Made by a program: the position numbers and the translations under genes. 64,000 nucleotides of DNA from a virus. The stretch spans positions 19,873-83,872 of the IMG/VR virus record IMGVR_UViG_3300026311_000001; one strand, given 5' to 3'. Shown here in pieces: positions 1,753 through 45,975 of the stretch. The notes below the pieces were generated by a model that was not told where the DNA came from, ran no database searches, and was given only the letters and a program-made list of their open reading frames with translations. Positions within the stretch are counted from its first letter, which is position 1. Each line of letters starts with the position of its first letter.

Positions 1753-1757
1753 AAAAC

Positions 1758-2866: not shown

Positions 2867-2889
2867 TGTTTTGTTTTCGTTGGTTGTCA

Positions 2890-2922: not shown

Positions 2923-2977
2923 GTAATAAAAATCCACGGTTCAGTTGACCGGGGATAAACTAACCGTTCCTTCAAAG

Positions 2978-6466: not shown

Positions 6467-6750
6467 AAGGCCATAAATATTATAAATTCATACAAAAACT
6501 TCCATCCATATTTAATTGCCATCAGATTATAGAGAAATATACAAAAATACCCCAACTGCACCAACCCGACAATCAATATAATCCGGCCTTTTAATGTGTC
6601 TGTGCTTAAAGCTACCAATACAATACCTGTTCCGGCACAAGTAAACAGATAATGGATCGGAGATAGATCAGTAATCAAAAATAGCGGATAGGATGCAAAG
6701 ATTAACAATGCACCTATCACAGCTATAGTATTTCTAAACCTCTCACTCAT
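6415..6750 (-). CDS. polytopic membrane protein (lysis module)
   Basis: Three to four hydrophobic helices across 111 aa. Confidence 0.4.
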   Translation of the reverse strand: MSERFRNTIAVIGALLIFASYPLFLITDLSPIHYLFTCAGTGIVLVALSTDTLKGRIILIVGLVQLGYFCIFLYNLMAIKYGWKFLYEFIIFMALCILILLFRLLLRMICG

Positions 6751-24444: not shown

Positions 24445-24590
24445 GTGAACTACCCACCCACGCCAAAGGCGATGGGATGGGCTTCATGGGTCAAAGCTCC
24501 TTCTACTGAAGGCAACGTACCATGATTTTTTAGTGTATGTTCCGTACACAAATGATTGTTTAAAGCAAAATTTTTGATATTTATGGAAGC
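24445..24590 (-). ncRNA. omega-RNA (reRNA) scaffold of element 1, extent approximate
   Basis: The 3' end of tnpB plus the right end form hairpins (CCTTCAGTAGAAGG; CCCAUCCCAUCGC/GCGUGGGUGGG with two bulged U). Guide would be TGCCCCACAATTTCACCTAA (24444..24425). Confidence 0.5.
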
Positions 24591-25628: not shown

Positions 25629-25747
25629 ATTGCAAATATACAAAATTTACAGAAACATACTAATTAATTTAAATAAATTATCTTGTATTGGGTCGCTTTT
25701 ATCCCACCCACAGCAAAGCTGATGAGTGGGCTTTCGCTCCTAATGTG

Positions 25748-25822: not shown

Positions 25823-26100
25823 CGTGTTCTGTTTCCGATTTGACTCGGATTGATCCCCATCGGGATTGTTTAAGAACCGTTTGTCATTTTTCAGACCAAT
25901 CTCAACACTAAGAGTTTCCTCTTTGTTTAATTGAGAATTCACAGAGCAAAGGACTTGGGAAGTATCCCCTGGTGTGTTCTTTAACTTTTTCTTAAACTTC
26001 TGCATAAAACCTCTATTAAAATTTTAAGCTCCCTAATCAACCAATTACCCTTGAAAGTCACCTCTCAAGCCCTTCCCCTTTAGGGAAGGGTGATTGACTT
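25823..26100 (-). ncRNA. HEARO/IscB-omega-RNA-like structured RNA candidate, copy 2
   Basis: Immediately 5' of the PLMP fragment, as expected for IscB omega-RNA; homologous to 4103-4372 with hairpin covariation. Confidence 0.45.
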
Positions 26101-27174: not shown

Positions 27175-27197
27175 AGTGTTATTGATTAAAGTTGTTT

Positions 27198-30570: not shown

Positions 30571-31764
30571 TTATGCTCCATTTTGTGAACTACCCACCCA
30601 CGCTAAAGCGATGGGATGGGCTTCATGGGTCAAAGCTCCTTCTAACGAAGGCAACGTACCATGATTTTTAAGTGTATGTTCCGTACACAATTTATTTAAT
30701 GCGAAATTTTTAATATTAACGGAAGCGTTAAGATCACGATTAAAAACAGAACCACATTCAGGACAAACCCATTCACGGTCTTTGAGTGTAAGTTCTTTGT
30801 TAATGTATCCGCACGCTGAACATGTTTTAGAGCTTGGTTCAAATCTCCCAATCCTTAGAATGTTTACACCGTTCCATTTTGCTTTATATTCAAGCATAGC
30901 AACAAACATTCCCCATGATACGTCAGAAATTGAACCTGCTAAACAGTGGTTCTTTAACATTCCAGAAATATTTAAGTCTTCCAAAGCAATAGATTGGTTC
31001 TCTCTTATTAACTCTGTACTGACCTTGTGCAAAAAGTCTTTTCTTTGGTTGGCTACTTTCTCATGTAGAATAGCTAACCGATGTTTACGCTTATTTGATT
31101 TGTGTCTTGAAAATTGTCGTTGCTGGTATTTTAAGCGATCTATTGATTTACGTAAGTACTTTGGATTGTCGTATTCTTTGCCATTTGAGGCAACAAGAAA
31201 AGATTTAATTCCTAAATCCACCCCTACTGTTGTTTCTTCATTAACTGGTTTTGATTGTTTTTCTACCTCGCCAGTTTCGCAAAGAATAGATACAAAATAT
31301 TTACCTGTTGGCGTTCTACTTATCGTAGCTTGTTTTATTTCTCCCTTTATCTGCCTATGTAATACAATATCAACACCCTTTTTAAACTTAGGAATAATAA
31401 GTTTGTCGTTATCAATTTTTATACTTTGTGGAATATTGAAAGACTGTTTTCCTCTACCCTTTTTCTTAAATTTAGGGAAATCAGTACGCCCCTTAAAGAA
31501 GTTTTCAAAAGCAGTGTTCATATTAACAATAGATTGTTGCAAAGACTGGCTATTAACTTCTTTTAACCATTCATTTTCTTTTTTTAAATCAGGGAGTCGT
31601 TTAACAAGGCTATACCAAGAATGGTTGGTTTTGTCTTTAGCGTATTCTGATTGTTTAAAAGCCAAAGCATTGTTATACACAAAGCGAGCGCAACCAATAT
31701 GTTTATTGATTAACTCAGCTTGTGGTGCTGTAGGATTCAAACGATATTTAAACGCTTTTAACAT
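30571..31764 (-). CDS. tnpB: TnpB RuvC nuclease (close paralogue of 24450..25628)
   Basis: MLKAFKYRLNPT.., VGVDLGIKSF, IALEDLNISGM, CSACGY..CPECG, NRDLNASVNI. Confidence 0.9.
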   Translation of the reverse strand: MLKAFKYRLNPTAPQAELINKHIGCARFVYNNALAFKQSEYAKDKTNHSWYSLVKRLPDLKKENEWLKEVNSQSLQQSIVNMNTAFENFFKGRTDFPKFKKKGRGKQSFNIPQSIKIDNDKLIIPKFKKGVDIVLHRQIKGEIKQATISRTPTGKYFVSILCETGEVEKQSKPVNEETTVGVDLGIKSFLVASNGKEYDNPKYLRKSIDRLKYQQRQFSRHKSNKRKHRLAILHEKVANQRKDFLHKVSTELIRENQSIALEDLNISGMLKNHCLAGSISDVSWGMFVAMLEYKAKWNGVNILRIGRFEPSSKTCSACGYINKELTLKDREWVCPECGSVFNRDLNASVNIKNFALNKLCTEHTLKNHGTLPSLEGALTHEAHPIALAWVGSSQNGA

Positions 31765-31869
31765 ATTGCAAATATACAATTTTTATATTAATTGTTATCT
31801 TTGTATAAGATTATTAACCATGCCTTACATCCAACCGACTGAAGATCGGTTGGTTTTACGGCATAAATT
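30585..31869 (-). mobile_element. TnpB-only IS200/IS605-like element 2
   Basis: Left end AATTTATGCCGTAAAACCA + hairpin ACCGATC..GTCGGTTGG, preceded by TTTAT (31874..31870); right-end hairpin + TAGTTCAC (30592..30585). Confidence 0.65.
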
Positions 31870-34347: not shown

Positions 34348-34617
34348 ATGAACCGAATACAAGAAGTATTAATTGAGCAGGGCAGAACGCAGGTATGGCT
34401 GTCCAAACAGCTTAACCGTAGCGATGAAACAATAAGCCGGTATTGCACAAATAAAATACAGCCGGATAATATTTATATGGAAAAAATAGCAAGCCTGCTG
34501 AACGTCCCTGTTGAAGTTCTCATAGTCAAACCATGCCCTGATTGTATGGGTAATATGATCTATAATGTGATAGAAAAACATTGGATATGTTTGAATTGTA
34601 AAAATGTAGTGGAATGA
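34348..34617 (+). CDS. XRE/Cro-type HTH regulator with C-terminal zinc ribbon
   Basis: GRTQVWLSKQLNRSDETISRYCTNK HTH; CPDC..CLNC. Confidence 0.6.
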   Translation: MNRIQEVLIEQGRTQVWLSKQLNRSDETISRYCTNKIQPDNIYMEKIASLLNVPVEVLIVKPCPDCMGNMIYNVIEKHWICLNCKNVVE

Positions 34618-35075
34618 AAAAGACACTAGCAAAGTATTTGAAAAAAGAAATGGTAAGCATAGACCCATTTGCGAACAAATGCAAATTAGCAAAAATTACC
34701 AATGATTTAAACCCTGAATACGATACGGATTACCATTTAGACGCTGTTGATTTTTTAAAGCAGTTTGAGGATAATTCAATTGATTTCGTTTTTTATGACC
34801 CACCATATTCATTAAGGCAGGTAAGCGAATGCTATAAAAATGTTGGAATACCTGTTACAATGGAAACCACGCAAAGCAGTTGGAGAACAAAGCACATAAA
34901 CGAAATTAGTCGAATACTAAAACCAAACGGGATTGTAATGTGCTTTGGGTGGAATAGTTCGGGTGTGGGTAAAAAACGAGGCACTGAATTAATCGAAGTG
35001 TTATTGGTTGCTCACGGTGGTAGCCACAATGATACAATTTGCACCGTAGAACGTAAGCCACCAAAGCTGTTTTAA
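34614..35075 (+). CDS. DNA methyltransferase (N6-A/N4-C class, DPPY)
   Basis: DFVFYDPPYSLRQ catalytic motif; small (153 aa). Confidence 0.6.
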   Translation: MKKTLAKYLKKEMVSIDPFANKCKLAKITNDLNPEYDTDYHLDAVDFLKQFEDNSIDFVFYDPPYSLRQVSECYKNVGIPVTMETTQSSWRTKHINEISRILKPNGIVMCFGWNSSGVGKKRGTELIEVLLVAHGGSHNDTICTVERKPPKLF

Positions 35076-35129
35076 CATTGCTGGTAATGTATCAAGTGTA
35101 TATGACGTAAAAAAAGCTAACACCAAACT

Positions 35130-36074
35130 ATGAACGAAGCACTAAAGGCATTTGAATTTAAAACCGAAGGGGAGGGAATTAATGTACTATCTCTTTTCGA
35201 TGGGATGTCGTGTGGGCAAATTGCATTGCAGAAACTTGGTGTAAAAGTTAAAAACTATTTTGCCTCTGAGATTAAACCACACGCCATAAAAGTAACTCAA
35301 CACAATTTCCCTGATACAATCCAGGTAGGTGATGTTACAAAACTACACGGTGAGTCATTTCCAAAAATAGACTTGCTAATAGGTGGCTCACCTTGTCAGG
35401 ATTTTAGCAGGGGTAATGCAATACGTGATGGATTGAATGGGATTAAATCAGGGCTTTTCTTTGAATACTTACGGCTAAAAGCTGAATTAAATCCTACCTA
35501 TTGGCTACTTGAAAATGTAGTGATGAGTGATGCTGATTATTTCACCATTAGCAACTACATGAAAACCGAACCAGTAAGGATTAATTCGGCTTTGATTTCT
35601 GCTCAATTACGTGACCGCCTTTATTGGACAAACGTAGGTCCGGAATACTTCGACTTATTTGGTAGCCGTAAGTGTGTAATACCACAACCAAAAGATAAAG
35701 GAATACTACTTAAACACATTTTAGAAAGTGGATATACTGATAGAGAAAAAAGCAGAGCATTACTTGAAAGTGATAGCCGACCATTACGGACACTTGAAAA
35801 AATGTGGCATAGATATTCTGATACAGGATTTACAACTGTGGTATTTGAAAGCCCTGATTTAGATTGGCAAAAAGGATTGAGATACTTTACACAAACTGAA
35901 TTAGAAAGACTACAAACTGTACCCGAAGGATACACCTCAATTTTGAAACGTAATGACGCAGCGTGTTTACTTGGTGATGGTTGGACTGTTGATGTTATTG
36001 CTCATATCTTGTCTTTCATGCGCGTGGGGGTTTTAAATTCAAATGCCTTACCCGAACTACAATATGAAACATGA
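35130..36074 (+). CDS. DNA (cytosine-5) methyltransferase
   Basis: LSLFDGMSCG (motif I), GGSPCQDFS (IV), LLENV (VI). Confidence 0.85.
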   Translation: MNEALKAFEFKTEGEGINVLSLFDGMSCGQIALQKLGVKVKNYFASEIKPHAIKVTQHNFPDTIQVGDVTKLHGESFPKIDLLIGGSPCQDFSRGNAIRDGLNGIKSGLFFEYLRLKAELNPTYWLLENVVMSDADYFTISNYMKTEPVRINSALISAQLRDRLYWTNVGPEYFDLFGSRKCVIPQPKDKGILLKHILESGYTDREKSRALLESDSRPLRTLEKMWHRYSDTGFTTVVFESPDLDWQKGLRYFTQTELERLQTVPEGYTSILKRNDAACLLGDGWTVDVIAHILSFMRVGVLNSNALPELQYET

Positions 36075-36090
36075 ACTCAATAGCTTTTTT

Positions 36091-36116
36091 TATGGCATAT
36101 ACACGTTGTTATGTGC
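36091..36116 (+). repeat. attC-like GTT-side half-site
   Basis: 3' arm GGCATATACAC + GTTATGTGC. Possible partner arm GTGTATATGAC at 35096-35106 after TTTTAAC (35070-35076), which would enclose the C5-MTase gene; tentative. Confidence 0.4.
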
Positions 36117-36240
36117 TGTAAACCGTGAGCGTATGGCAAGCCCAACATGTGCGGTGGGAATGGATTTGAAGCATTGCATATACGGCTGGTATATGCTGTG
36201 CGGCCTCCGGCAGGGGTTGGGCTTATTGAGGAGGTTTATT

Positions 36241-36376
36241 GCACATAACGTTGAGTGTAACCGCATGTAGCGGATTAGAAAGTAATAACCTATCAAATTA
36301 TACGAATATGAATAAAGAGCAGAACACTTCGCAAACCACAGAACCCGCTATTGCGGTTGACACTGTGTTAGGCAAC
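36241..36376 (+). repeat. attC-like imperfect palindrome (136 bp)
   Basis: GCACATAAC; arms GTTGAGTGTAACCGCATGTAGCGG / CCGCTATTGCGGTTGACACTGT; GTTAGGCAAC = revcomp of 36569-78. Confidence 0.65.
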
Positions 36377-36565
36377 GTACTTTATTTACCTGAATTGGTA
36401 ATGAGTTGGAAATCTTTAAATGTAGATAATTTTGGTGTTAAACTACCAATTACAACATATCCAGGGATGGGTAAATATTGGATACCTGTATTTGAAAGCA
36501 TTGAAGAATGCAAAAAAGAATATCCTGACAGTAAGGTGATAATTATAAAACAAGGGCAATGGTAG
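36308..36565 (+). CDS. hypothetical cassette protein
   Basis: Start MNKEQ in the palindrome loop; ORF track 36239 start unlikely. Confidence 0.45.
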   Translation: MNKEQNTSQTTEPAIAVDTVLGNVLYLPELVMSWKSLNVDNFGVKLPITTYPGMGKYWIPVFESIEECKKEYPDSKVIIIKQGQW

Positions 36566-36568
36566 TAT

Positions 36569-36625
36569 GTTGCCTAACGGTTAGTATAAACGGTCGTTTT
36601 AATGCCGTTTATACATTGTTGTGTG
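36569..36625 (+). repeat. attC-like imperfect palindrome (57 bp, minimal form)
   Basis: GTTGCCTAAC; arms GGTTAGTATAAACGGTCG / TGCCGTTTATACATT; GTTGTGTG = revcomp of 37118-25. Confidence 0.7.
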
Positions 36626-36732
36626 TCTGTGGGCGGTGATTTAGTACTAAACTTTATTTGAAATACTGAACAAAAAAGAAAAAAGGGAGGGGGAAAACTT
36701 TATAGAGTACCCATTTATATAAATCTGATACA

Positions 36733-37041
36733 ATGAAAGTATTAACAGAAGGTCACAAGTACCAATTAAGCGGTTTTGAGAACGCTGAAAACACTCAAGA
36801 AATCCAATTCATTGAGAAAACGCCAATTGAAGGCACAACCGAATTGAAAACGGTAAATGATGGAACAACTAACGAGGAACTTCTTGAAGTCTTAATTGAC
36901 CGAATGAACTACTTACAAGGAAAATTCCCTTGCCGTGAAAATGCAATTGTAATTACTAAACTTCAAGAATCTTTGATGTGGTTAGAAAAAAGAACGTCTG
37001 ACCGTAAAAAGAGAAATGTAGAAGGTAAACAATTGGCTTAA
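36733..37041 (+). CDS. hypothetical cassette protein
   Basis: 102-aa ORF. Confidence 0.5.
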   Translation: MKVLTEGHKYQLSGFENAENTQEIQFIEKTPIEGTTELKTVNDGTTNEELLEVLIDRMNYLQGKFPCRENAIVITKLQESLMWLEKRTSDRKKRNVEGKQLA

Positions 37042-37117
37042 ATTTTTGTGAGCGTGGGCTTTTTCTTTTTTGATTATTAGCAGAAATGTTGATTTGAAAA
37101 ACGGATTTAGCCCATTG

Positions 37118-37415
37118 CACACAACAAGGCTGGCGGTATGGGTATGTTTGCCCAACGCACCGCACCGGACTTGAATTGAAATACTTAACTTAAAAATACG
37201 AGCGATGGCATATTATTCATTGAATACACAAATAAACAAAGGGAAATACAAAGGGAAAAAAGTAGAGGAACTTATTAAAAGTACCGAAGGGCAAAAATAT
37301 CTTCTTGCCTTACATATTGGAAACTATAATGTGTTTTTAAACCCAGAAGTATTCAGAGCGTTGGCAGATTACACTCGAACAAAGAACGGCAAATTACCTA
37401 TACCGCATGTTAGCG
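37118..37415 (+). repeat. attC-like site, long and weak (298 bp)
   Basis: CACACAAC; arms GGCGGTATGGGTATG / CCTATACCGC; GTTAGCG = revcomp of 37511-17. The 3' arm lies inside ORF 37205..37516. Confidence 0.35.
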
Positions 37416-37516
37416 ATACGGTTTGCGATAATCCGCATTGCGTAGACGGTGTAGTAGCTGAAATATATGGCGAAAAAGTTTACTGCGATAAATGTCAATC
37501 GCAAACTGGACGCTAA
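37205..37516 (+). CDS. hypothetical cassette protein with C-terminal Cys cluster
   Basis: ..CDNPHCVDG..YCDKC; stop TAA inside CGCTAAC. Confidence 0.45.
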   Translation: MAYYSLNTQINKGKYKGKKVEELIKSTEGQKYLLALHIGNYNVFLNPEVFRALADYTRTKNGKLPIPHVSDTVCDNPHCVDGVVAEIYGEKVYCDKCQSQTGR

Positions 37517-37637
37517 CGTTTGACGGTATCAGCAGTATTTGCTTCACTAAATTTAATTTTAAACACAAATGACAAAATTAGCAGAAAATAATCCACAAGG
37601 CACGGCAAATATTGCTGATGACTGTGTGTTAGCCACC
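37511..37637 (+). repeat. attC-like imperfect palindrome (127 bp)
   Basis: CGCTAAC; arms GTTTGACGGTATCAGCAGTATTTGC / GCAAATATTGCTGATGACTGTGT; GTTAGCCACC = revcomp of 37887-96. Confidence 0.65.
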
Positions 37638-37895
37638 GTACTTTTATGTGATTGCGGGTCGGCGGAGCATCAAATAATAATACATAAAGACAAAGATTTT
37701 TCAGAAGGATATAGAGAAGTGATACTTTGTCCACACTTAATCACATACCGTAATATTTTCAAACGGGTATTGGTTGCTTTTAAATACATATTTGGTTATA
37801 AATGCAAATATGGTGCGTGGGATAGTATCATAGTTTCGAAACAAAATTATCTACCATTAAAAGAAGCTGTGGAGTTTCTTGAGTATGGTGGCTAA
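37569..37895 (+). CDS. hypothetical cassette protein
   Basis: Its only Met codon lies inside the preceding palindrome loop; an in-frame GTG sits at the GTT core (37626). Confidence 0.45.
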   Translation: MTKLAENNPQGTANIADDCVLATVLLCDCGSAEHQIIIHKDKDFSEGYREVILCPHLITYRNIFKRVLVAFKYIFGYKCKYGAWDSIIVSKQNYLPLKEAVEFLEYGG

Positions 37896-38022
37896 CGGAC
37901 GAGCGTATGAGTAGTGGCGGATAGAATGCAACTACCTTTCGTAAAGCACAAAGATTGAAAAGAGAACTAAACTTAAATATTAACACAAAAACCGCCATTA
38001 CTTATACGCATTGTTAGCGGTA
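37887..38022 (+). repeat. attC-like imperfect palindrome (136 bp)
   Basis: GGTGGCTAAC (stop TAA inside); arms GGACGAGCGTATGAGTAGTGGCGG / CCGCCATTACTTATACGCATT; GTTAGCGGTA = revcomp of 38596-605. Confidence 0.7.
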
Positions 38023-38049
38023 TGTATGGGCGGATTAGAAGTACAAAAG

Positions 38050-38604
38050 ATGAAAAAATACGAAATAATTTACGCAGATCCAGCTTGGCAATATAAGACC
38101 AAAGAAAGCCTTGCAAAAACAAGTATTTTGAATGGGGAGCTTAACACCCATTATGGAACGATGACTATTGCTGAGTTGGGTGGGTTGCCGTTGGGGAGCA
38201 TTTCAGATAAAAACTCTATGCTGTTTATGTGGGTGGTTAGCCCGATGCTTGATGATGGAATTGAACTTATGAAAAAATGGGGCTTTAAATATAGCACAAT
38301 AGCTTTTATTTGGCACAAACAAAGGGCTAACCCTGGACATTATACTATGAGCGAATGTGAAATATGTTTAGTTGGAAGGCGGGGTAAAATACCAACTCCA
38401 AGAGGGGCAAGAAATGTTCGTCAGTTTTTATCTGAAATGCGTGGAAAACACTCTGCTAAACCAACTGAAATAAGAAATAGAATTGAACTTATGTTTCCAA
38501 CACAAACAAAATTAGAAATGTTTGCAAGGCAGAGTGCGAAGGGTTGGGATGCGTGGGGAAACGAGGTTGAAAATAGCATTGACCTTAGCCCATATTACCG
38601 CTAA
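38050..38604 (+). CDS. MT-A70-family N6-adenine DNA methyltransferase
   Basis: MKKYEIIYADPAWQY (DPPW-type motif), ..HSAKPTE.. Confidence 0.8.
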   Translation: MKKYEIIYADPAWQYKTKESLAKTSILNGELNTHYGTMTIAELGGLPLGSISDKNSMLFMWVVSPMLDDGIELMKKWGFKYSTIAFIWHKQRANPGHYTMSECEICLVGRRGKIPTPRGARNVRQFLSEMRGKHSAKPTEIRNRIELMFPTQTKLEMFARQSAKGWDAWGNEVENSIDLSPYYR

Positions 38605-38697
38605 CGGCTTGTGGTATGAAATCGAAACCGACACCACCACAGCCTGAACAATGCGACTAAGCAACCAGAGGTTTTGTTTTATACCACTTGTTAGCCA
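38596..38697 (+). repeat. attC-like imperfect palindrome (102 bp)
   Basis: TACCGCTAAC (stop inside); arms GGCTTGTGGTATGAAATCGAAACC / GGTTTTGTTTTATACCACTT; GTTAGCCA = revcomp of 39141-48. Confidence 0.7.
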
Positions 38698-38739
38698 TCT
38701 GGTGCGGTCAATTAGTAATAAACTTAATTTGAAAACGAA

Positions 38740-39147
38740 ATGGAAGCAAAAAATTTTAGAATTGGAAATTTACTTACAAGCAAAGGATGGGGAAATGTTG
38801 GGGCAATTGAAGGGATTGAAATTACACAAGATGGTTTTGAATTGAAAGTAAAAGGGTATGTGCATCCTTGGGAAAAAGACAAATATTTTGATTTAGCCCC
38901 AATTGAATTAGATGAAGAATGGCTTACAAAATTTGGATTTATTGAAGAAACTCCAAACGAGTTTATACTACGGAAACATCCGATAATTTTTAACATTCAT
39001 AGAAATTTAGTCACTGGTGAGTTTATGTCCAGAATGAACCCGAATTATTCAATATTAGTTAAATCTGTTCATCAATTGCAGAATTTATTTTTTGCGCTTA
39101 CAAAAGATGAACTTGAATTGAAAACGGAATGTAGCACTTGTGGCTAA
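38740..39147 (+). CDS. hypothetical cassette protein
   Basis: 135-aa ORF, stop inside TGGCTAAC. Confidence 0.5.
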   Translation: MEAKNFRIGNLLTSKGWGNVGAIEGIEITQDGFELKVKGYVHPWEKDKYFDLAPIELDEEWLTKFGFIEETPNEFILRKHPIIFNIHRNLVTGEFMSRMNPNYSILVKSVHQLQNLFFALTKDELELKTECSTCG

Positions 39148-39235
39148 CGGTCGGGTATTGGCGATGCCCGCACTTAGAAACTTTAAATTATAAACAAGCT
39201 GTCCAGCGGGTATTGCCAATACCTTGTTAGCAGCA
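39141..39235 (+). repeat. attC-like imperfect palindrome (95 bp)
   Basis: TGGCTAAC (stop inside); arms GGTCGGGTATTGGCGATGCCCGC / GCGGGTATTGCCAATACCTT; GTTAGCAGCA = revcomp of 39446-55. Confidence 0.7.
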
Positions 39236-39252
39236 GTAACGGATTAAAAAAA

Positions 39253-39441
39253 ATGGAACAGTCAAAACAAGAAAAAGAAATTTATGAGTTAGCAGAACTT
39301 TTGATGCAGTCTGAAAACTTAGAAGCAAGTGCAACTATCCTTCGTGATTTTGCTGAAAAGTGTTATCAAGAAGGGGCGGTTGATGCTCAAAAAGATGCAG
39401 CGGAAGAAATACGTGAACACTATGTCGAAGGTGGTCGGTAG
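39253..39441 (+). CDS. hypothetical small acidic cassette protein
   Basis: 62-aa ORF. Confidence 0.4.
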   Translation: MEQSKQEKEIYELAELLMQSENLEASATILRDFAEKCYQEGAVDAQKDAAEEIREHYVEGGR

Positions 39442-39445
39442 TTAT

Positions 39446-39581
39446 TGCTGCTAACGGTTGATTATATGAAACGGTGGGGATTTAAAGCCTTACATTTTCG
39501 CATCGTAATAAACTAACAACAAGGCAGGTGGGCTAAAAAGACGTATGACACCCCACTGTTTTATATAATGTGTTGTGCGCA
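39446..39581 (+). repeat. attC-like imperfect palindrome (136 bp)
   Basis: TGCTGCTAAC; arms GGTTGATTATATGAAACGGTGGGG / CCCCACTGTTTTATATAATGT. GTTGTGCGCA differs from its own AAC side but equals revcomp of 39794-803. Confidence 0.7.
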
Positions 39582-39589
39582 GTACGGTT

Positions 39590-39790
39590 ATGAAATTTGC
39601 AGTAACAGTTTTTAATACTGAAAGAGTTTCTTACGAAGAAATAAAAGACGTAGGACACACGAAAATTTTTAATGACACTGATAGTTTGAAAGATATAATT
39701 GAATGGGGAAACTCTATTCGTGCAAAAACCTATGATGGGCCAAAAACAGTTGATATAACAGAATTAAGATTCAGCAAGTTGTGTGAGTAG
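39590..39790 (+). CDS. hypothetical small cassette protein
   Basis: ATG at 39590 preferred over the GTG at 39575, which lies in the GTT core. Confidence 0.4.
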   Translation: MKFAVTVFNTERVSYEEIKDVGHTKIFNDTDSLKDIIEWGNSIRAKTYDGPKTVDITELRFSKLCE

Positions 39791-39793
39791 TAT

Positions 39794-39891
39794 TGCGCAC
39801 AACGGATGGGTATATGAAAAGTAGCCCAACCGCAAACTTTGAACAACGCACGAACCTTTCATGGGCTATTTTTTATATACCGTGTTAGCTG
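39794..39891 (+). repeat. attC-like imperfect palindrome (98 bp)
   Basis: TGCGCACAAC; arms GGATGGGTATATGAAAAGTAGCCCA / TGGGCTATTTTTTATATACCGT; GTTAGCTG = revcomp of 40764-71. Confidence 0.7.
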
Positions 39892-39923
39892 TCTGGTGCG
39901 GATTTTAAAAACAAAACTTTAAT

Positions 39924-40757
39924 ATGAAAAACGAACGTAGTAATAATATTTTTTTGAGCGGTGGCAAAAATGGTTTTGAAAAAAACAAAAACATCCTTTG
40001 GTATGGTGAATGCCTTCAGATGATGAAGCAAATACCTGACCAGAGTATAAACCTAATCTGCTGTGATTTACCCTATGGTGTGACTAAAAATAAATGGGAT
40101 TCATTAATTGACTTGGATTTGCTTTGGGAGCAATACGAAAGAGTAATAGTTGAAAATGGTGCAATAGTTCTTTTTGGACAAGATAAATTTTCTGCAAGGT
40201 TGATGCTTTCAAATGAGAAGCTACATAGATATAACTTGATATGGCAGAAAACCACACCAACAGGACATTTGAACGCTAAAAGAATGCCCTTAAGAAGCCA
40301 CGAAGATATATTGGTGTTTTACAAGAAATTACCAACATATAACCCACAAAAAACGACTGGACACAAAAGGAAGGTAAGCACAGCAAAGCATAAGCGAAAC
40401 TCAAAAAAGACAACCAATTACGGTGAACACGGATTGACAACTTATGATAGTACCGAACGCTACCCGAAAAGTGTTTTGACCTTTGCAACTGATAAACAGA
40501 AATCAGCATTACATCCAACACAAAAACCGCTGGAGTTGATTAAATATCTTGTAAAAACATATTCAAATGAAAATGATTGGGTACTTGATAATACTTGCGG
40601 AAGTAACACAACTGGACTTGCTTGCTTTGAATTAAACCGAAACTATATTGGAATTGAGAATGATTTTGATATGTACGAAATTTCAAAAGAGCGGGTGGGA
40701 GAAAAAAATATTATTACGGCTGATATGCACGAACCTTCAATTAAAACTGGAACGTAG
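39924..40757 (+). CDS. DNA methyltransferase (N4-C/N6-A, beta class)
   Basis: LICCDLPYGV catalytic motif; HPTQKPLELIKYLV; DNTCGSNTTG AdoMet motif. Confidence 0.8.
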   Translation: MKNERSNNIFLSGGKNGFEKNKNILWYGECLQMMKQIPDQSINLICCDLPYGVTKNKWDSLIDLDLLWEQYERVIVENGAIVLFGQDKFSARLMLSNEKLHRYNLIWQKTTPTGHLNAKRMPLRSHEDILVFYKKLPTYNPQKTTGHKRKVSTAKHKRNSKKTTNYGEHGLTTYDSTERYPKSVLTFATDKQKSALHPTQKPLELIKYLVKTYSNENDWVLDNTCGSNTTGLACFELNRNYIGIENDFDMYEISKERVGEKNIITADMHEPSIKTGT

Positions 40758-40763
40758 CACTTG

Positions 40764-40900
40764 CAGCTAACGGATTACGGCTATGAAGCGTTGCCGAGTA
40801 AAACGCCCTAACTTTCAAATTAAAAATAAAATGAATAAAGAGAACAAAACTTCGGATAAGCACGAACACGGCAATGATTTTATAGCCGATGTTATGCAAC
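40764..40900 (+). repeat. attC-like imperfect palindrome (137 bp)
   Basis: CAGCTAAC; arms GGATTACGGCTATGAAGCGTTGCCG / CGGCAATGATTTTATAGCCGAT; GTTATGCAAC = revcomp of 41041-50. Confidence 0.7.
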
Positions 40901-41049
40901 GTTTTTTAATTTATGCTGATGACTACATCACTTGGAACAAACAAAAAAATGACTGGAATCATTCTGATGAATTTACAGGCACTTACTTAGACGCTCACGA
41001 ATATGCCCGTTCAAAATATGGTAAGCGTTATACTTTAAATGTTGCATAA
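40831..41049 (+). CDS. hypothetical small cassette protein
   Basis: MNKENK leader start in the loop; alternative in-frame ATG inside the GTTATGC core at 40894. Confidence 0.4.
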   Translation: MNKENKTSDKHEHGNDFIADVMQRFLIYADDYITWNKQKNDWNHSDEFTGTYLDAHEYARSKYGKRYTLNVA

Positions 41050-41174
41050 CGTGTTGCAAATAAATATAGTACGATTATGAAAGAAAAAATTATCGAAATA
41101 GTAGGATTTAACATGGAACCCGAAAGGGCTGAACTTATTGCGCAGCGAGTATTGGATTTATTTGCTGTTATGCG
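41041..41174 (+). repeat. attC-like imperfect palindrome (134 bp)
   Basis: GTTGCATAAC (stop inside); arms GTGTTGCAAATAAATAT / GATTTATTTGCT; GTTATGCG = revcomp of 41376-83. Confidence 0.55.
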
Positions 41175-41382
41175 ACGTTTTAATTTTAGAATTGTAAAAG
41201 ACGTGAATAGAGATAAAAAACACCCAGGATGGGAAATGATTAATTACGGATTAGAAATTGATAATGAAATAGTATGTTGGTTTGCTTATGAACATCCACA
41301 AATGACATTAGAAGAAATTAAGTTGCAACAAAATAAAAGAGAATTATATGAAGAAATTGTGCGCAGGGTAAATGGCGCATAA
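41077..41382 (+). CDS. hypothetical cassette protein
   Basis: 101-aa ORF; in-frame ATG inside the GTTATGCG core at 41170. Confidence 0.45.
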   Translation: MKEKIIEIVGFNMEPERAELIAQRVLDLFAVMRRFNFRIVKDVNRDKKHPGWEMINYGLEIDNEIVCWFAYEHPQMTLEEIKLQQNKRELYEEIVRRVNGA

Positions 41383-41472
41383 CGGTTGAGGCTAAGAAAC
41401 GTAGCCTTGTAATCACGTTTCAAAATAGGCAGGAACTTGTCAGGCTATGTTTTTTAGCCTTTGTTACCGCCA
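41374..41472 (+). repeat. attC-like imperfect palindrome (99 bp)
   Basis: GGCGCATAAC (stop inside); arms GGTTGAGGCTAAGAAACGTAGCC / GGCTATGTTTTTTAGCCTTT; GTTACCGCCA = revcomp of 41947-56. Confidence 0.7.
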
Positions 41473-41488
41473 GTTAATTTTAAAAGTC

Positions 41489-41746
41489 ATGAGTAATTAT
41501 TTGGAATTTCAAGAAATTAAATCAGATTATTTTAATGCTGATGGTGAATTTTACGGAGGATTCACAGGATGCTCGCCTGTAAAAAATATTATGGAAAAAA
41601 TGAACAAAACTATTGAGGAAATGGCAGAACATTCAAAACGCCTTGTTGCTCAAATTGAATCTTTTGACTTTATAAACAAAGAACCATTAAATTTAAAAGA
41701 TAGTGAACATTTTATTAACTTAAAAAAATATATAGATTATGTGTAA
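41489..41746 (+). CDS. hypothetical cassette protein
   Basis: MSNYLEF start preferred over the 41447 start, which lies in the palindrome arm. Confidence 0.4.
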   Translation: MSNYLEFQEIKSDYFNADGEFYGGFTGCSPVKNIMEKMNKTIEEMAEHSKRLVAQIESFDFINKEPLNLKDSEHFINLKKYIDYV

Positions 41747-41945
41747 ATATAAAAAATCAAACCCGCAACCTAAAAACATTCCATATCCAAGAGTTCAATT
41801 TGAATCTGAGTGTGGATTTAAACTTATGTTAACAGAAGGATATGACCAAGATTGGCATAACCACAAAAAATACGGACAGCCATTATTGCCAAAAGGTAAA
41901 TGCTTAAAGTGTCAGTCTGAAATTGAAGTAGTGCCGTCTTTTTAA
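41739..41945 (+). CDS. hypothetical small protein with a CxxC pair
   Basis: 68-aa ORF, ..CGF...GKCLKCQSE.. Confidence 0.4.
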   Translation: MCKYKKSNPQPKNIPYPRVQFESECGFKLMLTEGYDQDWHNHKKYGQPLLPKGKCLKCQSEIEVVPSF

Positions 41946-41946
41946 T

Positions 41947-42082
41947 TGGCGGTAACGGTGGGTGTAGCTGCCAGTGGCGGCAAGTAACCGAAAAGCATAA
42001 TTAGAATTATAAACTTTAAAATACTTACAAAATGTCAAACGAAGAACAACACCAGCCATTGCAGCTACACGATGTTAGCCGC
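41947..42082 (+). repeat. attC-like imperfect palindrome (136 bp)
   Basis: TGGCGGTAAC; arms GGTGGGTGTAGCTGCCAGTGGC / GCCATTGCAGCTACACGAT; GTTAGCCGC = revcomp of 42408-16. Confidence 0.65.
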
Positions 42083-42403
42083 TGCCCTTCTGATGTTGAA
42101 ATGATTGAATCATTAAATAAGAAGGTTGAAGAAAAACAACGAAAACTTAATGACCTGGAAAACAAATTCAGGGAATGCCGGGAAGAGTACAGGCAACTTA
42201 TATCTTTTCAAATCGCTCAATTAAGAGCAGTACAGATGCTTTACGATGTGATGAAAAACGGAAATACTCACTATCAAAAGGCTTTATTTGCTGAAATAGC
42301 TAAGGAATCGCTTGGCCGAGAAATAGGTTCACTTATTGAACGCTATCAAAACACTAAATGGAAATTTCGATTAGGTGACGAACCTGACGAACTACCGTTT
42401 TAG
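42032..42403 (+). CDS. coiled-coil protein with SSB-like acidic tip
   Basis: Ends ..GDEPDELPF*. Confidence 0.45.
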   Translation: MSNEEQHQPLQLHDVSRCPSDVEMIESLNKKVEEKQRKLNDLENKFRECREEYRQLISFQIAQLRAVQMLYDVMKNGNTHYQKALFAEIAKESLGREIGSLIERYQNTKWKFRLGDEPDELPF

Positions 42404-42407
42404 GGTT

Positions 42408-42542
42408 GCGGCTAACGTTGGGTATATGACCAGTAGCGGATTAAATAGTAATAACTTATCAAATTAGTAGAATGAATATAGAAAGCACAGAACTTCAAAA
42501 CAGCACCGCCCCCGCTATTGGTTATATACCGGGTTATGCACA
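42408..42542 (+). repeat. attC-like imperfect palindrome (135 bp)
   Basis: GCGGCTAAC; arms GTTGGGTATATGACCAGTAGCGG / CCGCTATTGGTTATATACCGG; GTTATGCACA = revcomp of 43555-64. Confidence 0.7.
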
Positions 42543-43551
42543 GGTTTTTTCTCATCGTTTTCCTTATCGTTGGACTTTGAAAGATGCCAACTTTACAAAG
42601 GATAAGGGCAAAGTATTTAGTTGCTTTGCTTGTGGTGGTGGTTCAACAATGGGTTACAAATTAGCGGGGTTTGATGTGATAGGATGCAATGAGATTGACC
42701 CTAAAATGATGGAAGCATACCGAACTAACCACAACCCCAAATACAGCTATTTAGAACCGATACAAACCTTTAAACTTAGAAAGGATTTACCAAAGGAATT
42801 ATACAACCTTGATATTTTGGACGGTTCACCACCTTGTAGCAGTTTTTCAATGGCTGGAAATAGAGAAAAAGACTGGGGTAAAGATAAGGTTTTTAGAGAA
42901 GGTCAAGCGATGCAAGTTTTAGATACTTTGTTTTTTGATTTTATTGATTTGGCGAAGAAATTACAGCCGAAAGTTGTGGTTGCTGAAAATGTGAAAGGGT
43001 TGCTTTTAGGCGAAGCGAAGAAATATGTAAGACAAATATACCGTGAGTTTGACCAAGCAGGATATTACTGCCAACATTGGCTTTTAGATGCTTCAAAAAT
43101 GGGTGTACCTCAAAGACGTGAGCGAGTGTTTTTTATTTGTTTACGTAAAGATTTAGCTGAACCTTTTTTGTATCAGCAAGATTTGTTTACGGTTAATCCT
43201 AAATTGGAATTGAATTTTAATGAGCCGGAAATACCTATAAAGCAATTTGCAAAAGGTATTGCAAAAAAAGAAAGTCAAAATTATTCAGAAGATAGATTTG
43301 GCGATGTAATGTTAGACTTGAATAGAGCAAGCAACACAATAGCGACAGACATAAATAGATATTGGCTTGATGAAAATACGTTGATTGATAAAAACACAGT
43401 TAGCTTAATAGGTAGTTATCCTATTGATTACAACCACTTGGAATTTAACAACCCTCAGTATTTAATCGGAATGAGCGTTCCGCCTGTAATGACAGCAAAC
43501 ATAGCGACTGAAATTTATTCGCAATGGCTCTCAAAATTGGCACGGTCTTAA
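42472..43551 (+). CDS. DNA (cytosine-5) methyltransferase
   Basis: FSCFACGGGSTMGY (I), GSPPCSSFSMAG (IV), ENVKGLL (VI), QRRERVFFI (VIII). Confidence 0.85.
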   Translation: MNIESTELQNSTAPAIGYIPGYAQVFSHRFPYRWTLKDANFTKDKGKVFSCFACGGGSTMGYKLAGFDVIGCNEIDPKMMEAYRTNHNPKYSYLEPIQTFKLRKDLPKELYNLDILDGSPPCSSFSMAGNREKDWGKDKVFREGQAMQVLDTLFFDFIDLAKKLQPKVVVAENVKGLLLGEAKKYVRQIYREFDQAGYYCQHWLLDASKMGVPQRRERVFFICLRKDLAEPFLYQQDLFTVNPKLELNFNEPEIPIKQFAKGIAKKESQNYSEDRFGDVMLDLNRASNTIATDINRYWLDENTLIDKNTVSLIGSYPIDYNHLEFNNPQYLIGMSVPPVMTANIATEIYSQWLSKLARS

Positions 43552-43554
43552 ACT

Positions 43555-43689
43555 TGTGCATAACGGCTGCGGGTATGACCAGTGGCGGATTACGAGTACA
43601 AAACTTTCAAAATACGATACAGAATGAACGAAGCAAATAACTTTCAAATAGCAGAAAACCCGCCATTGGTTATACCCGATGTTAGCAAC
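43555..43689 (+). repeat. attC-like imperfect palindrome (135 bp)
   Basis: TGTGCATAAC; arms GGCTGCGGGTATGACCAGTGGCGG / CCGCCATTGGTTATACCCGAT; GTTAGCAAC = revcomp of 44372-80. Confidence 0.7.
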
Positions 43690-44367
43690 TGCCCTTTTTC
43701 TATTGTCTTTAACGAGGATTGTGTGCAGGGTTTAAAACGCTTTGCAGATAATTACTTTGATTTGGCAATAGTTGACCCGCCTTATGGAATTGGAGCAGAT
43801 AAAGCCCAAAATAACGCTGCTATGCAAAGAATAAAAGCAGAAGGTAAAAGCAAAGCTGGGAGAGGTTGGAAATTATACGCTGATACTGATTGGGATAATG
43901 AAATACCAACCTTTGAATATTGGGAGCAGTTGTTTAGGGTATCTAAAAATCAAATTGTGTGGGGTGGCAATTACTTTACGGAATATCTGCCCCCATCAAT
44001 GGGTTGGGTAATGTGGGATAAAGGGCAAAGAGATTTTAGCCTTGCCGATGGGGAACTTGCATGGACAAGTTTTAACAAAGCCTTACGAATATTTGAAATG
44101 AGTAGAGGAAAGGCACTTGCTAAAAATAACGAGCAAGGGGGCAGATTTCACCCAACTCAAAAACCTGAAATGCTTTATAGTTGGATTTTGCAGAATTACG
44201 CAAAGCAGGGGGATTTGATTTTAGATACCCATTTAGGAAGTGGAAGTTCAAGAATAGCAGCGTATAAAGGCGGGTTCAACTTTGTAGGATTTGAAATAAA
44301 CGAACATTATTACGAGAAGCAAGAAAAGCGTTTTAAAAACTTCTCGGCACAGCAGCGGCTCTTTTAG
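43624..44367 (+). CDS. N6-adenine/N4-cytosine DNA methyltransferase (DPPY)
   Basis: LAIVDPPYGIG, HPTQKPEMLYSWIL, DTHLGSGSS; start MNEANNF preferred over the GTG at 43582. Confidence 0.8.
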   Translation: MNEANNFQIAENPPLVIPDVSNCPFSIVFNEDCVQGLKRFADNYFDLAIVDPPYGIGADKAQNNAAMQRIKAEGKSKAGRGWKLYADTDWDNEIPTFEYWEQLFRVSKNQIVWGGNYFTEYLPPSMGWVMWDKGQRDFSLADGELAWTSFNKALRIFEMSRGKALAKNNEQGGRFHPTQKPEMLYSWILQNYAKQGDLILDTHLGSGSSRIAAYKGGFNFVGFEINEHYYEKQEKRFKNFSAQQRLF

Positions 44368-44371
44368 GGTT

Positions 44372-44405
44372 GTTGCTAACATATGTATAAGCGCACTTTA
44401 CAGAC
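44372..44405 (+). repeat. attC-like AAC-side half-site (last of + array)
   Basis: GTTGCTAAC + ATATGTATAAGCGCAC... The only complementary partner in the window is the inverted copy at the right window edge. Confidence 0.4.
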
Positions 44406-44548
44406 GTAAATAATCATGTAATACAGTAACAATGGCACTTACAGAAAAACAAAAATATAATATTCAACAACTCTCCATTGAAGATACAATAGAAATACTT
44501 GACGAGTGTAAAGAAAGACTTGGATTAGTCTCGCAGGGAGATTATAAA
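44378..44548 (+). repeat. inverted repeat, left copy (171 bp)
   Basis: 100% identical to the reverse complement of 63743-63747 plus 63836 to window end. Confidence 0.9.
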
Positions 44549-44638
44549 AAGATAACAGCGTATCCATATTCCCGTGAAAATTTAGTACAGGATATGAAGA
44601 AAGGAAAGATCAGGTATTGGGAGTTGTACCCCATTTAA
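44432..44638 (+). CDS. hypothetical small protein; 5' part duplicated in inverted orientation at window end
   Basis: 68-aa ORF; bases 44432-44543 recur as the reverse complement at 63836-63947. Confidence 0.4.
   Translation: MALTEKQKYNIQQLSIEDTIEILDECKERLGLVSQGDYKKITAYPYSRENLVQDMKKGKIRYWELYPI
44551..44632 (+). repeat. possible attC-like site between small ORF and tnpB unit (arms weak)
   Basis: GATAAC (44551-56) ... GTTGTACCCC (44623-32) = revcomp of 45917-26; inner-arm pairing poor. Confidence 0.3.
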
Positions 44639-45926
44639 GGACGCAAAGAGCGACCATAAACAGTTCCTCCTTCATAGATTCGACTAATGCCGACATCTCC
44701 AGAGGCTCTTCCGACAGTACCTGCCGTGAGTAAGTTTTGTTTCTGTAATCCGAATTTTAGAATATTATTTGCAGCAAGAAAATCTCTATTGTTTTCAATA
44801 CCGCATTTACTACAAGTCCAAACTCGGTCAGATAATTTTAATTCTTTATTTATTTCACCACAACCGCACATTTTAGAACTTGGTTCAAATCTTCCTATTT
44901 CTAAATAGTTACCGCCTTGTTCCTGCATCTTGTATTGCAACAAGGTATAAAATCTACCTAATCCTAAATCCGAAATAGATTGTGCAAGTTTGTGGTTTCT
45001 CATCATACCATATATGTTTAAGTTTTCACACGCAACCGTATTGTACTGTTTGGCTATCGCAGTAGTTATTTTGTGTAGGAAATCTAATCTCTGATTTGAT
45101 ATTTTCTCGTGAAGCAAAGCCACTTTTAAGTTTGCTTTTTTTCTGTTTGAGCTTCCTTTTTGCTTTTTTGAAGCTCTACGTTGTAATACTTTTAATCTTT
45201 GTATTGAGTTTTTTAAGTGTTTTGGATTTTCTATTTCAGTACCATCAGATAAAGTTGCAAATGTTTTTATTCCAGTATCAATACCAACAGCATTAACCTT
45301 CGATATAGGCTTTTGCTTCACTTTAACATCAGGTAATTCAACCGTTATTGAAACAAAGAACTTTCCAGTTGGTTTTTTCTCTATTGCTGCTGTTTTTATT
45401 TTGCCGTCAAACGTTCTGCTAATCTTAGTTTTTATCCATCCAATTTTATTTACAGATACTTTATTATTTTCAAAATCTACTTTCGTGTTTTGCGGAAATC
45501 CGACACTGTGAGTCCCTTTGTGCTTGCTCTTAAATTTTGGGAAGCCCTTCTTTTGCTTAAAGAAACGTGTAAATGCTTTGTCCATATTTACAATGGATTG
45601 CTGCAAACTTTGAGCAACAGATAGCTTTAACCACTCATATTCGGGATTCTTTTTTAACTGAGTAAGTTCGGTCATTAAAGTAAAAGCGGATATGCTTTTC
45701 TTTTCTGATTGGTATTCCTTTATACGTCTATCCAATGCCCAATTGTATACAAAACGAGCATTTCCCAGCATCTGATTTAATTGCTGTTCCTGCTCTTTGT
45801 TCGGATAAACCCTATATCGAAAACCTTTTACCATAATGCAAATATATAAAAAATATTTTAATTCCTACACAAAAGCATTAATTATTTTAGAACTCAAGAA
45901 CGCAAAGAATAAAAACGGGGTACAAC
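44623..45926 (-). mobile_element. tnpB unit bounded by perfect 10-bp GTTGTACCCC/GGGGTACAAC inverted cores
   Basis: Cores at 44623-32 and 45917-26; flanked by attC-like hairpin 45917-45975. Confidence 0.55.
44635..45834 (-). CDS. tnpB: TnpB RuvC nuclease (third subtype)
   Basis: MVKGFRYRVYPN.., AVGIDTGIKTFATLS, TVACENLNIYGM, CGCGE..CSKCG, NRDFLAANNI. Confidence 0.9.
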   Translation of the reverse strand: MVKGFRYRVYPNKEQEQQLNQMLGNARFVYNWALDRRIKEYQSEKKSISAFTLMTELTQLKKNPEYEWLKLSVAQSLQQSIVNMDKAFTRFFKQKKGFPKFKSKHKGTHSVGFPQNTKVDFENNKVSVNKIGWIKTKISRTFDGKIKTAAIEKKPTGKFFVSITVELPDVKVKQKPISKVNAVGIDTGIKTFATLSDGTEIENPKHLKNSIQRLKVLQRRASKKQKGSSNRKKANLKVALLHEKISNQRLDFLHKITTAIAKQYNTVACENLNIYGMMRNHKLAQSISDLGLGRFYTLLQYKMQEQGGNYLEIGRFEPSSKMCGCGEINKELKLSDRVWTCSKCGIENNRDFLAANNILKFGLQKQNLLTAGTVGRASGDVGISRIYEGGTVYGRSLRP

Positions 45927-45975
45927 ACGGTATAAACCGCATTAAAACGACGGCTTATACTCATCGTTAGGAGGA
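45917..45975 (-). repeat. attC-like minimal palindrome, opposite polarity
   Basis: Minus strand TCCTCCTAACGATGAGTATAAGCCGTCGTTTTAATGCGGTTTATACCGTGTTGTACCCC. 43/50 identical to 36573-36622, with compensatory arm changes. Confidence 0.7.

Follow-up and report, generated by a model that had tools for sequence, protein, structure and literature searches.

The stretch analyzed here, 64,000 nucleotides of viral DNA (IMG/VR record IMGVR_UViG_3300026311_000001, positions 19,873 to 83,872; called the window and numbered from its first letter), contains at 36108..44380 (+) an array of hairpins with AAC and GTT feet, which an original prediction had taken for recombination sites that carry expression signals for the genes behind them. 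We identified the sites by an arm-duplex scan anchored on AAC and GTT, using structural criteria of our own rather than IntegronFinder. The array has 15 hairpin-headed cassettes, each running from AAC to AAC, within 8.3 kb, and all 15 sites (A to O) have the form xYTAAC, 5′ arm, loop, 3′ arm, GTTRxxx. The energies of the arm duplexes were -23 to -39 kcal/mol, versus -15 to -20 kcal/mol for chance AAC..GTT pairs elsewhere in the window; sites B and K were weak, at about -16 kcal/mol. No Rfam family matched the array hairpins, the only matches in the window being two HEARO RNAs elsewhere.

The cargo consists of six DNA methyltransferases, including two just upstream of the array at 34614-36074, one open reading frame (ORF) with a weak match to the Acb2/Tad1 hairpin domain, slightly under the Pfam cut-off, and small ORFs. 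The window has a G+C content of 36%, a large polyvalent protein with an LPD38 domain, and an SU10-adaptor-like virion protein, and its methyltransferases share 82 to 88% DNA identity with those of Flavobacterium phages. It looks like a Flavobacteriia-type phage.

The sites fall into length classes, measured from the AAC core (R″) to the GTT core (R′), of 53 bp (short, B), 91 to 98 bp (medium, F, G, I, and L), and 124 to 133 bp (long, A, D, E, H, J, K, M, N, and O), and in site C, arms of the same kind enclose a loop of about 250 nt. The three classes had been proposed originally, and they are real, as they recur in about 300 related hairpins, whose inner lengths peak near 42 to 46, 78 to 81, and 116 to 124 nt.

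All sites lie on the + strand. Hairpin A (36243..36373, long, -29.2 kcal/mol, the unit for all energies below) has the box GCGGATTA at 36270-36277 and a loop ATG at 36308 that opens an 85-aa ORF ending at 36565. Hairpin B (36572..36624, short, loop TCGTTTTAATG) heads the cassette of the Acb2/Tad1-hairpin-like ORF, 36733-37041. It is followed by hairpin C (37119..37415, 297 bp), whose 20-bp stem has an energy of -30.8, with none of 500 shuffles equally good, and whose ORF, 37205-37516, starts in the loop and is read through the 3′ arm and the GTT at 37409. Hairpin D (37511..37634, long, -29.1) has its loop ATG at 37569. No ORF starts in the loop of hairpin E (37890..38019, long, -33.3), which contains a box variant, GGCGGATAG, and GCAC-type repeats; the MT-A70 methyltransferase of this cassette starts after GTT, behind a box at 38030-38037. 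Hairpins F (38599..38696, -23.2) and G (39142..39232, -37.0, with the leader CGGATTAAAAAAAATG after R′) are medium, and hairpin H (39449..39578, -28.5) is long, again with no loop ORF.

In the second half of the array, hairpin I (39797..39890, medium, -30.6) is followed by the box GCGGATTTT at 39898 and an N6/N4 methyltransferase ORF, 39924-40757. Hairpin J (40765..40897, long, -29.8) has a loop ATG at 40831 and an alternative in-frame ATG at 40894 within GTTATGC, and site K (41044..41173), of long-class length with a weak stem of -16.0, has an ATG at 41077 and an alternative at 41170. Hairpin L (41377..41469, medium) was found by the arm-duplex scan. The last three hairpins are long: M (41950..42080, -30.5), whose loop ATG at 42032 opens a 123-aa ORF; N (42410..42539, -33.7), with a box at 42436-42443 and a loop ATG at 42472 opening a C5 DNA methyltransferase that ends at 43551; and O (43558..43687, -38.7), with a box at 43585-43592 and a loop ATG at 43624 opening an N6 DNA methyltransferase that ends at 44367. 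The array closes with a terminal R″, GTTGCTAAC, at 44372-44380, followed by ATATGTATAAGCGCAC; this stretch (44372..44431) resembles the TAAC|TATTATATATAAGCAAG junction of related arrays, with no recombinase after it.

Two structures border the first cassette. An ORF-less unit of 142 nt at 36108-36249, framed by GTTATGTGC...GCACATAAC, folds with -60.6 kcal/mol (z = -4.7; 0 of 200 shuffles equally good) and may represent a structured RNA or a nested hairpin that has degenerated. Before it, at 35070-36114, lies a possible giant hairpin whose arms (about 35093-35114 and 36085-36107; -19.3 kcal/mol, 0 of 500 shuffles equally good) enclose a C5 methyltransferase gene at 35130-36074; its spacing to the nearest AAC is atypical, so it is uncertain.

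Structure and favored strand of the hairpins

An alignment of 85 long hairpins gave a consensus of xYTAAC and GTTRxxx around a 20-bp L stem, with AAC and GTT invariant. Compensatory double changes were found at 19 of the 20 pairs, indicating that the structure is selected while the sequence of the arms drifts freely. Of the 85 hairpins, 83 retain one particular G:T wobble, at the AGT/ATT step of the L stem. Judged by eye, not measured, the stems of the consensus and of the examples have no apparent bulged extrahelical bases. The cores are looser than the integron consensus: a strict RYYYAAC...GTTRRRY scan of the window found nothing, and RYYYAAC fails at several sites.

We also found that the extension of R′ is complementary to the R″ that closes its own cassette, in runs of 7 to 16 nt (mean, 11.6), versus a mean run of 5.0 with the R″ of the same hairpin or any other R″. 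In 8 of the 15 cassettes, this pairing has a G:T at position 11. Complementarity within the own cassette is the signature of integron cassettes, which pass through a circular form. The cores, the covariation of the stem, and this complementarity bear out the view that the sites are recombination-type hairpins with the architecture of integron attC sites.

At nearly every phage site, the + (coding) strand folds better than its complement because of the G:T wobbles. In chromosomal arrays of Bacteroidota, the same hairpin strand folds better at 124 sites versus 31, though the genes there lie on the opposite strand, and the asymmetry is therefore a property of the DNA site. The G:T wobbles, which become A:C mismatches on the other strand, may serve as strand markers in place of extrahelical bases.

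Cassette boundaries

Because the AAC...GTT sites are nearly symmetric, the assumption that crossover takes place at GTT needed testing. Near-identical segments (93 to 100%) occur in different arrays, and they span one xTAAC to the next, with unrelated DNA upstream and a different hairpin after each. Such segments are shared by the related loci L143 and L192 (100% over 315 nt), L187 and L201 (97.9% over 419 nt), L171 and L184 (99.4% over 495 nt), L137 and L175 (97.5% over 277 nt), and L008 and L013 (97% over 700 nt). The window itself shares one with L022 (93.5% over 567 nt), consisting of hairpin B, the Acb2-like ORF, and the next AAC. The classical cassette order, with the ORF before its attC and a G|TT crossover 3′ of the hairpin on the coding strand, is not what we see here.

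To judge from these ends, from the junction beside the recombinase of related arrays (below), and from the better folding of the coding strand, the crossover likely lies at AA|C, 5′ of the hairpin, and not at GTT. The mobile unit would then be the hairpin with its leader and ORF, and the ORFs would cross no junction. With these three parts as one unit, the mixed codon phases at GTT need no explanation. The phases do differ among sites as originally described, but since the ORFs cross no junction, they set no limit on the interchange of cassettes.

A tyrosine recombinase linked to related arrays

A gene for a 267-aa Xer/IntI-like tyrosine recombinase (L008:7446-8249) lies directly after the array in the viral contig L008. 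When we fetched 80 loci with this recombinase, strong hairpin arrays were present upstream of it, on the same strand, in 46; in most of the others, the contig ends close to the recombinase and leaves little or no DNA upstream of it. The arrays stop 100 to 400 bp before the recombinase gene, and there are essentially none downstream of the gene. The last cassette ends with its AAC, with no hairpin after it, and the boundary between variable and conserved sequence reads TAAC|TATTATATATA, i.e., TAAC|TAT(T)ATATATA. This junction and the xTAAC ends of the shared cassettes speak against the original view of GTT as the crossover, with ORFs running into the next unit. The short-loop 23-mer of site B is not generally found beside a recombinase, and the association was seen only when all hairpin classes were scanned.

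The best NCBIfam matches of the recombinase were “XerA/integron integrase” (E = 1e-49) and the integron integrase TIGR02249 (E = 1.6e-44). Neither in the window nor in its relatives does an IntI with the integron-specific additional domain, as expected of a complete integron, stand beside the array. In the Vibrio IntI, this extra domain contacts the extrahelical bases. The missing IntI domain and the apparently bulge-less stems suggest a simpler system of hairpin recombination, and because of them we describe it as integron-like and not as an integron.

Searches of the genes flanking the window array with Pfam and PHROGs found no integrase. A 68-aa ORF at 44432-44638, in the position of the recombinase, was considered as a remnant of it and rejected, as it is unrelated to the recombinase. 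With 15 hairpins in 8.3 kb and no recombinase in the 64-kb window, the array is a cluster of attC sites lacking an integrase (CALIN), a term that covers two or more neighboring attC sites whose surroundings contain no integron integrase. It is a recombinase-less cluster, whose recombinase was lost or never present, and its mobility would require a recombinase in trans.

Putative start codons inside the loops

According to the original prediction, the start codon of the downstream gene lies inside the loop at seven sites and probably an eighth, with the ORF running through the 3′ arm and GTT, and all of the coordinates proved correct. Between their AAC and GTT feet, hairpins A, C, D, J, K, M, N, and O contain ATGs at 36308, 37205, 37569, 40831, 41077, 42032, 42472, and 43624, respectively. 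None of the eight frames meets a stop codon in the 3′ arm or at GTT before it joins the downstream ORF; 13 to 30 codons precede GTT (68 at C), and the codon phases at GTT are 2, 0, 2, 0, 0, 0, 1, and 0 in the same order. ORF 37569-37895 at D has a single Met, in the loop, as had been claimed, and ORF 37205-37516 at C likewise has only one.

The same was found in related arrays, where we counted distinct hairpins only and required at least 40 open codons past GTT. A loop ATG with such a frame was present in 99 of 168 long hairpins (59%) versus 8 of 134 medium hairpins (6%), and in the long hairpins it lies 13 to 27 codons before GTT, with phase counts of 66, 25, and 8. The loop-ATG pattern is general in related phage arrays and not peculiar to the window. 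Three methyltransferases of Flavobacterium phage hemulen6-1 are arranged in this way, each of them annotated in GenBank as starting at the loop ATG, and the layout of gp005 of this phage matches the cassette of hairpin O.

The homologue of the window C5 methyltransferase in phage OP947161 has no hairpin and begins with MKHRFPY, four codons past the GTT position, and this leaves the window gene with no canonical start other than 42472. At N and O, the next TTG or GTG start would drop conserved N-terminal residues (HRFPYRW and FNEDC, respectively). Proteins started in the loops would carry an N-terminal extension of about 15 to 25 residues, with no conserved sequence, from the 3′ arm and GTT. 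It is plausible that the long class often holds the start codon because the cassette has been compacted or because the loop makes a good unstructured initiation region in Bacteroidota.

The GCGGATT box and the leaders

Exact copies of GCGGATTA are present on the + strand at 36270, 38030, 42436, and 43585, the positions originally reported, and the box is enriched in the window (7 matches versus 1.29 expected; none of 100 shuffles reached 7). A “variant box” at 40771 is merely the start of a stem. In long hairpins, the GCGG of the box pairs with CCGC and closes the stem, and its ATT opens the loop. The box, with GCAC(A/T)AA..TT.AA units, also occurs in bacterial long hairpins on the strand antisense to the genes (L079, L077, L075, and L114). 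For this reason, the loop box counts as a trait of the hairpin family and not as a demonstrated signal for expression.

Where a phage cassette begins with a short or medium hairpin, a box can lie after the GTT core, as had been noted: CGGAT(T/A) is found 13 nt after the G of GTT in 17 of 33 cases, where it opens a common A-rich leader with the consensus aGTaCGGATTa..aa.cacaAAacTTtaA. Promoter searches were negative for the leaders. The Bacteroidetes -33/-7 motif had 3 matches in the window versus 3.3 expected, none in a leader, and sigma-70-like matches were under the shuffle expectation (27 versus 39), with none found in the leaders, a phage-specific promoter type being conceivable. Nor is the ATGAA leader special. 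ATGAA opens 25% of the window genes and is thus an ordinary A-rich start context. Of the proposed expression module that travels with the site, what stands is the 5′ leader and start codon inside the hairpin, inherited with the gene; for the box in the loops, a role as a promoter or translation signal is unsupported, given its presence in antisense bacterial loops.

We considered an origin of the long class from a short hairpin by precise deletion, or from a mini-cassette; it fits poorly, since the box lies about +20 from an embedded GTT versus +13 from R′, and the 3′ foot, GG|GTT instead of AAC, does not agree with it either.

Loops of long-class hairpins that lack a start codon contain about three tandem units of about 18 nt, GCAC(A/T)AA..TT.AA(T)TA, e.g., at 37915-37995 in hairpin E, L136:4056-4192, and L138:6263-6394. 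The periodicity suggests a protein-binding array. At L134:2202-2335 and 2593-2726, a long-class loop has two T-arm-like motifs (GGTTCGATTCC and GGGTTCGACTCCC), as if derived from a tRNA.

Related sites and known systems

The 23-mer in the loop of site B, AAACGGTCGTTTTAATGCCGTTT, was found exactly in 62 IMG/VR contigs and 58 genomes, mostly of Bacteroidota. Chromosomal arrays of Bacteroidota with the same hairpin family have their genes mostly on the opposite strand, and their cargo (a beta-lactamase, esterases, AraC regulators, Fic, and methyltransferases) resembles that of chromosomal integrons. Such arrays were seen in chromosomes of Flavobacteriales, Cytophagales, Chitinophagales, Bacteroidales, and Saprospiraceae (loci L066-L123, e.g., 940-6659 of the Tenacibaculum locus L079). 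L067 and L108 have an IntI-like recombinase, or a piece of one, on the same side of the array.

Like integron attC sites and cassette arrays, CALINs included, the window array has imperfect hairpins with AAC and GTT cores, one strand of which folds better, a sequence after GTT that pairs with the sequence before the next AAC, and small promoter-less genes. Relatives of it have a tyrosine recombinase and an attI-like junction at one array end, and its hairpin family is also present in Bacteroidota chromosomes with diverse accessory cargo. The differences are that all ORFs here are inverted relative to the hairpin polarity, with the hairpin before the gene; that the stems have conserved G:T wobbles and no bulged bases apparent by eye (not measured); that the loops are conserved (the 23-nt short loop and the GCGGATT box with GCAC repeats), in tight length classes and with a start inside the loop; and that the recombinase linked to related arrays lacks the IntI-specific insertion.

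In class 1 integrons, translation of the ORF-11 leader of attI1 boosts cassettes that have no initiation region of their own. The loop starts resemble it in that a short frame originates in a recombination site and then continues into, or is coupled with, the gene of the cassette. The attI1 leader, however, belongs to attI only and acts across a true junction, whereas the frames here begin inside the hairpin of each cassette and cross none. T4-type promoter-stem-loops are likewise repeated stem-loops that flank small accessory genes in a hyperplastic phage region. The analogy with them, which the original prediction drew, fails for want of a sigma-70 or Bacteroidetes promoter motif in the leaders, and the sites here differ further by their cassette-specific complementarity and their linkage to a dedicated tyrosine recombinase.

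Qi et al. (2023) described CALINs in phages, among them Polaribacter phage P12002L, which has two methyltransferases (PMC9892861). Its P12002L_attC1 (TGCTAACGGCTACGGCTAAACGGTCGTTTTAATGCCGTTTTAGCCATTGTTAGGC) is a clear homologue of site B, and the methyltransferase cargo in a Flavobacteriia phage is a further likeness. In P12002L, only two sites were found, which were called divergent in direction, and attC1 gave no verified recombinants with IntI1 (PMC9892861). HattCI called “top” the strand of P12002L_attC1 that corresponds to the coding strand here (PMC9892861). In contrast to ours, that study describes no linked recombinase, inverted polarity, long class, or loop start codons (PMC9892861). 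Our literature searches gave no other related report, and we found no published account of the inverted polarity, of a linked recombinase that lacks the IntI domain, of length classes whose loops are conserved, or of starts inside hairpins.

Other elements of the window

At 44623-45972 (-), in the orientation opposite to that of the array, a TnpB gene with OrfB_IS605 and Cas12f-like TNB domains has the framing of a cassette: GTTGTACCCC comes after a short-class hairpin (45972-45920) and before the gene, and GGGGTACAAC (44632-44623) comes after the gene. Copies of this unit, 97.8% identical, are present in L057, L058, and L065, and in L065 the copy is the last unit before the tyrosine recombinase. 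The two HEARO RNAs (RF02033; 117 and 104 bits) lie at 4140-4371 and 25848-26098 (-). One adjoins a TnpB-like ORF at 2978-4102 (PHROG 506 transposase), the other an ORF of about 375 aa at 26080-27210, and these units look like IscB/TnpB-type elements. More TnpB-like genes are present at 30571-31779 and 44635-45834, with similar-sized ORFs at 24450-25643 and 27203-28357. Nucleotide-sugar epimerase and glycosyltransferase genes at 18409-22075 (PHROGs 540 and 7162) may serve DNA or surface sugar modification.

Interpretation and alternatives

We consider it probable that the region is an integron-like cassette array of a Bacteroidota phage of the Flavobacteriia type, in which the genes are inverted relative to classical cassettes. 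Each unit would consist of C, the 5′ arm, the loop, the 3′ arm, GTT with a cassette-specific extension, the ORF, the complementary extension, and xTAA. The functional folded strand would be the coding (+) strand, corresponding to the “bottom” strand of integrons, and recombination would act on this strand in single-stranded form, with the crossover at AA|C, 5′ of the hairpin. Turned to the classical orientation, the array would show a recombinase gene pointing away, an attI-like junction, and cassettes of canonical attC polarity, with every ORF antisense. It would be transcribed in one direction as a single unit, starting upstream of about 34.1 kb and running toward the recombinase end. The long A-rich loop would form the 5′ leader of the gene, translation beginning at the exposed loop ATG and the ribosome reading through the 3′ arm.

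Several observations weigh against parts of this interpretation. The segment shared by L137 and L149 ends at GTTA, which is explained by identical neighboring short hairpins that extend the match; L183 and L195 have one gene body behind two different hairpin classes; and L143 and L184 share a hairpin module alone. These exceptional segments imply that some exchange on the GTT side, or homologous recombination within the conserved hairpins, takes place too. The strand and the crossover are assigned from geometry and analogy. A search of the 64-kb window by phmmer with IntI1 found no tyrosine recombinase, so that activity of the array itself is hypothetical, and the only site of the family tested in published work, P12002L_attC1, was not recombined by IntI1 (PMC9892861). 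The recombinase of related arrays scores 152.6 bits on TIGR02249, in two stretches, versus a cut-off of 265, and both of its NCBIfam matches are under the curated cut-offs. It has 27% identity to IntI1, with a gap of about 40 residues at the IntI-specific domain. As to translation, the use of the loop ATGs is itself inferred; the in-frame ATGs inside the R′ core GTT-ATG-C at J (40894) and K (41170) may be the true starts, and later in-frame ATGs are present at A (36401, 31 codons downstream) and M (42101, 23 codons downstream). The box after GTT could be an expression signal.

Those ATGs at or after GTT at J, K, A, and M are what speaks for the view that the loop ATGs are not real starts and that translation begins downstream of GTT, with the open frames through the 3′ arm as a by-product. 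We regard this as rather unlikely, since such a frame is found in 59% of long versus 6% of medium hairpins, D and C have no other Met, and N and O would lose conserved residues. The start codons in the loops, the G:U-compatible wobbles that favor the sense strand in the phage, and the phmmer result for the window would also agree with hairpins that act in RNA only, as elements of mRNA processing or stability or as translational controls that expose the start, with no present role in DNA recombination. This is unlikely, given that bacterial arrays of the same family have their genes antisense to the favored strand, that the R′/R″ complementarity is cassette specific and spans whole ORFs, that identical cassettes with sharp ends are found in different contexts, and that the arrays of 46 loci have a tyrosine recombinase linked to them. 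A role in RNA in addition to the one in DNA is possible in phages.

Among readings that keep a role in DNA, a crossover at G|TT, as in the original prediction, would assign the hairpin, leader, and ATG to the upstream cassette and make the proteins junction fusions. It has in its favor the GTTRRRY-like core 3′ of each hairpin on the coding strand, the “top” call of HattCI for the homologous P12002L_attC1, and the few shared segments that start or end near GTT. The near-identical cassettes begin and end at xTAAC, with unrelated genes before and different hairpins after them, the last cassette before the recombinase stops at TAAC without a hairpin, and the coexistence of three codon phases would leave shuffled cassettes mostly nonfunctional, and on these grounds we find this model very unlikely. 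It strikes us as scarcely credible that the hairpins form the ends of single-strand transposons of the IS200/IS605 type, which an HUH TnpA would move to TAAC targets. A TnpB gene does lie immediately behind the short-class hairpin 45920-45972 (-), TAAC delimits the units, and one strand is favored. But no TnpA was found, only one TnpB/IscB copy in the window adjoins such a hairpin, and that tnpB is itself framed as a cassette, which in L065 is the last one before the tyrosine recombinase, and a recombinase of the latter type is consistently linked to the arrays.

Integrons are seen as devices of bacteria, whose cassettes rely on the attI promoter and have the attC after the gene. For the array studied here, and still on the reading of it as an inverted integron-like array, the recombination hairpin probably doubles as a translation-initiation region and is partly translated, so that one DNA segment would be under the demands of base pairing and of coding at once. 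Gene callers and integron finders would mis-orient such sites, and the loop ATGs would have to be taken as the N-terminal starts of proteins in these arrays. If the linked recombinase is active, it would represent natural hairpin recombination without extrahelical bases and without the extra domain of IntI, the features thought to set the strand choice of integrons. A wider proposal, for and against which we see the balance as even, is that Bacteroidota phages carry a gene-capture platform of their own, parallel to the integron, with a compact Xer-like recombinase lacking the IntI domain, bulge-less hairpins, inverted cassettes in which the hairpin is the 5′ leader and often holds the start, a stock of counter-defense genes (DNA methyltransferases and the ORF with the below-cut-off Acb2/Tad1 match), and a hairpin family in common with the chromosomal arrays of their hosts. 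With an active recombinase, this would be a phage-owned system that shuffles anti-restriction and anti-defense genes.

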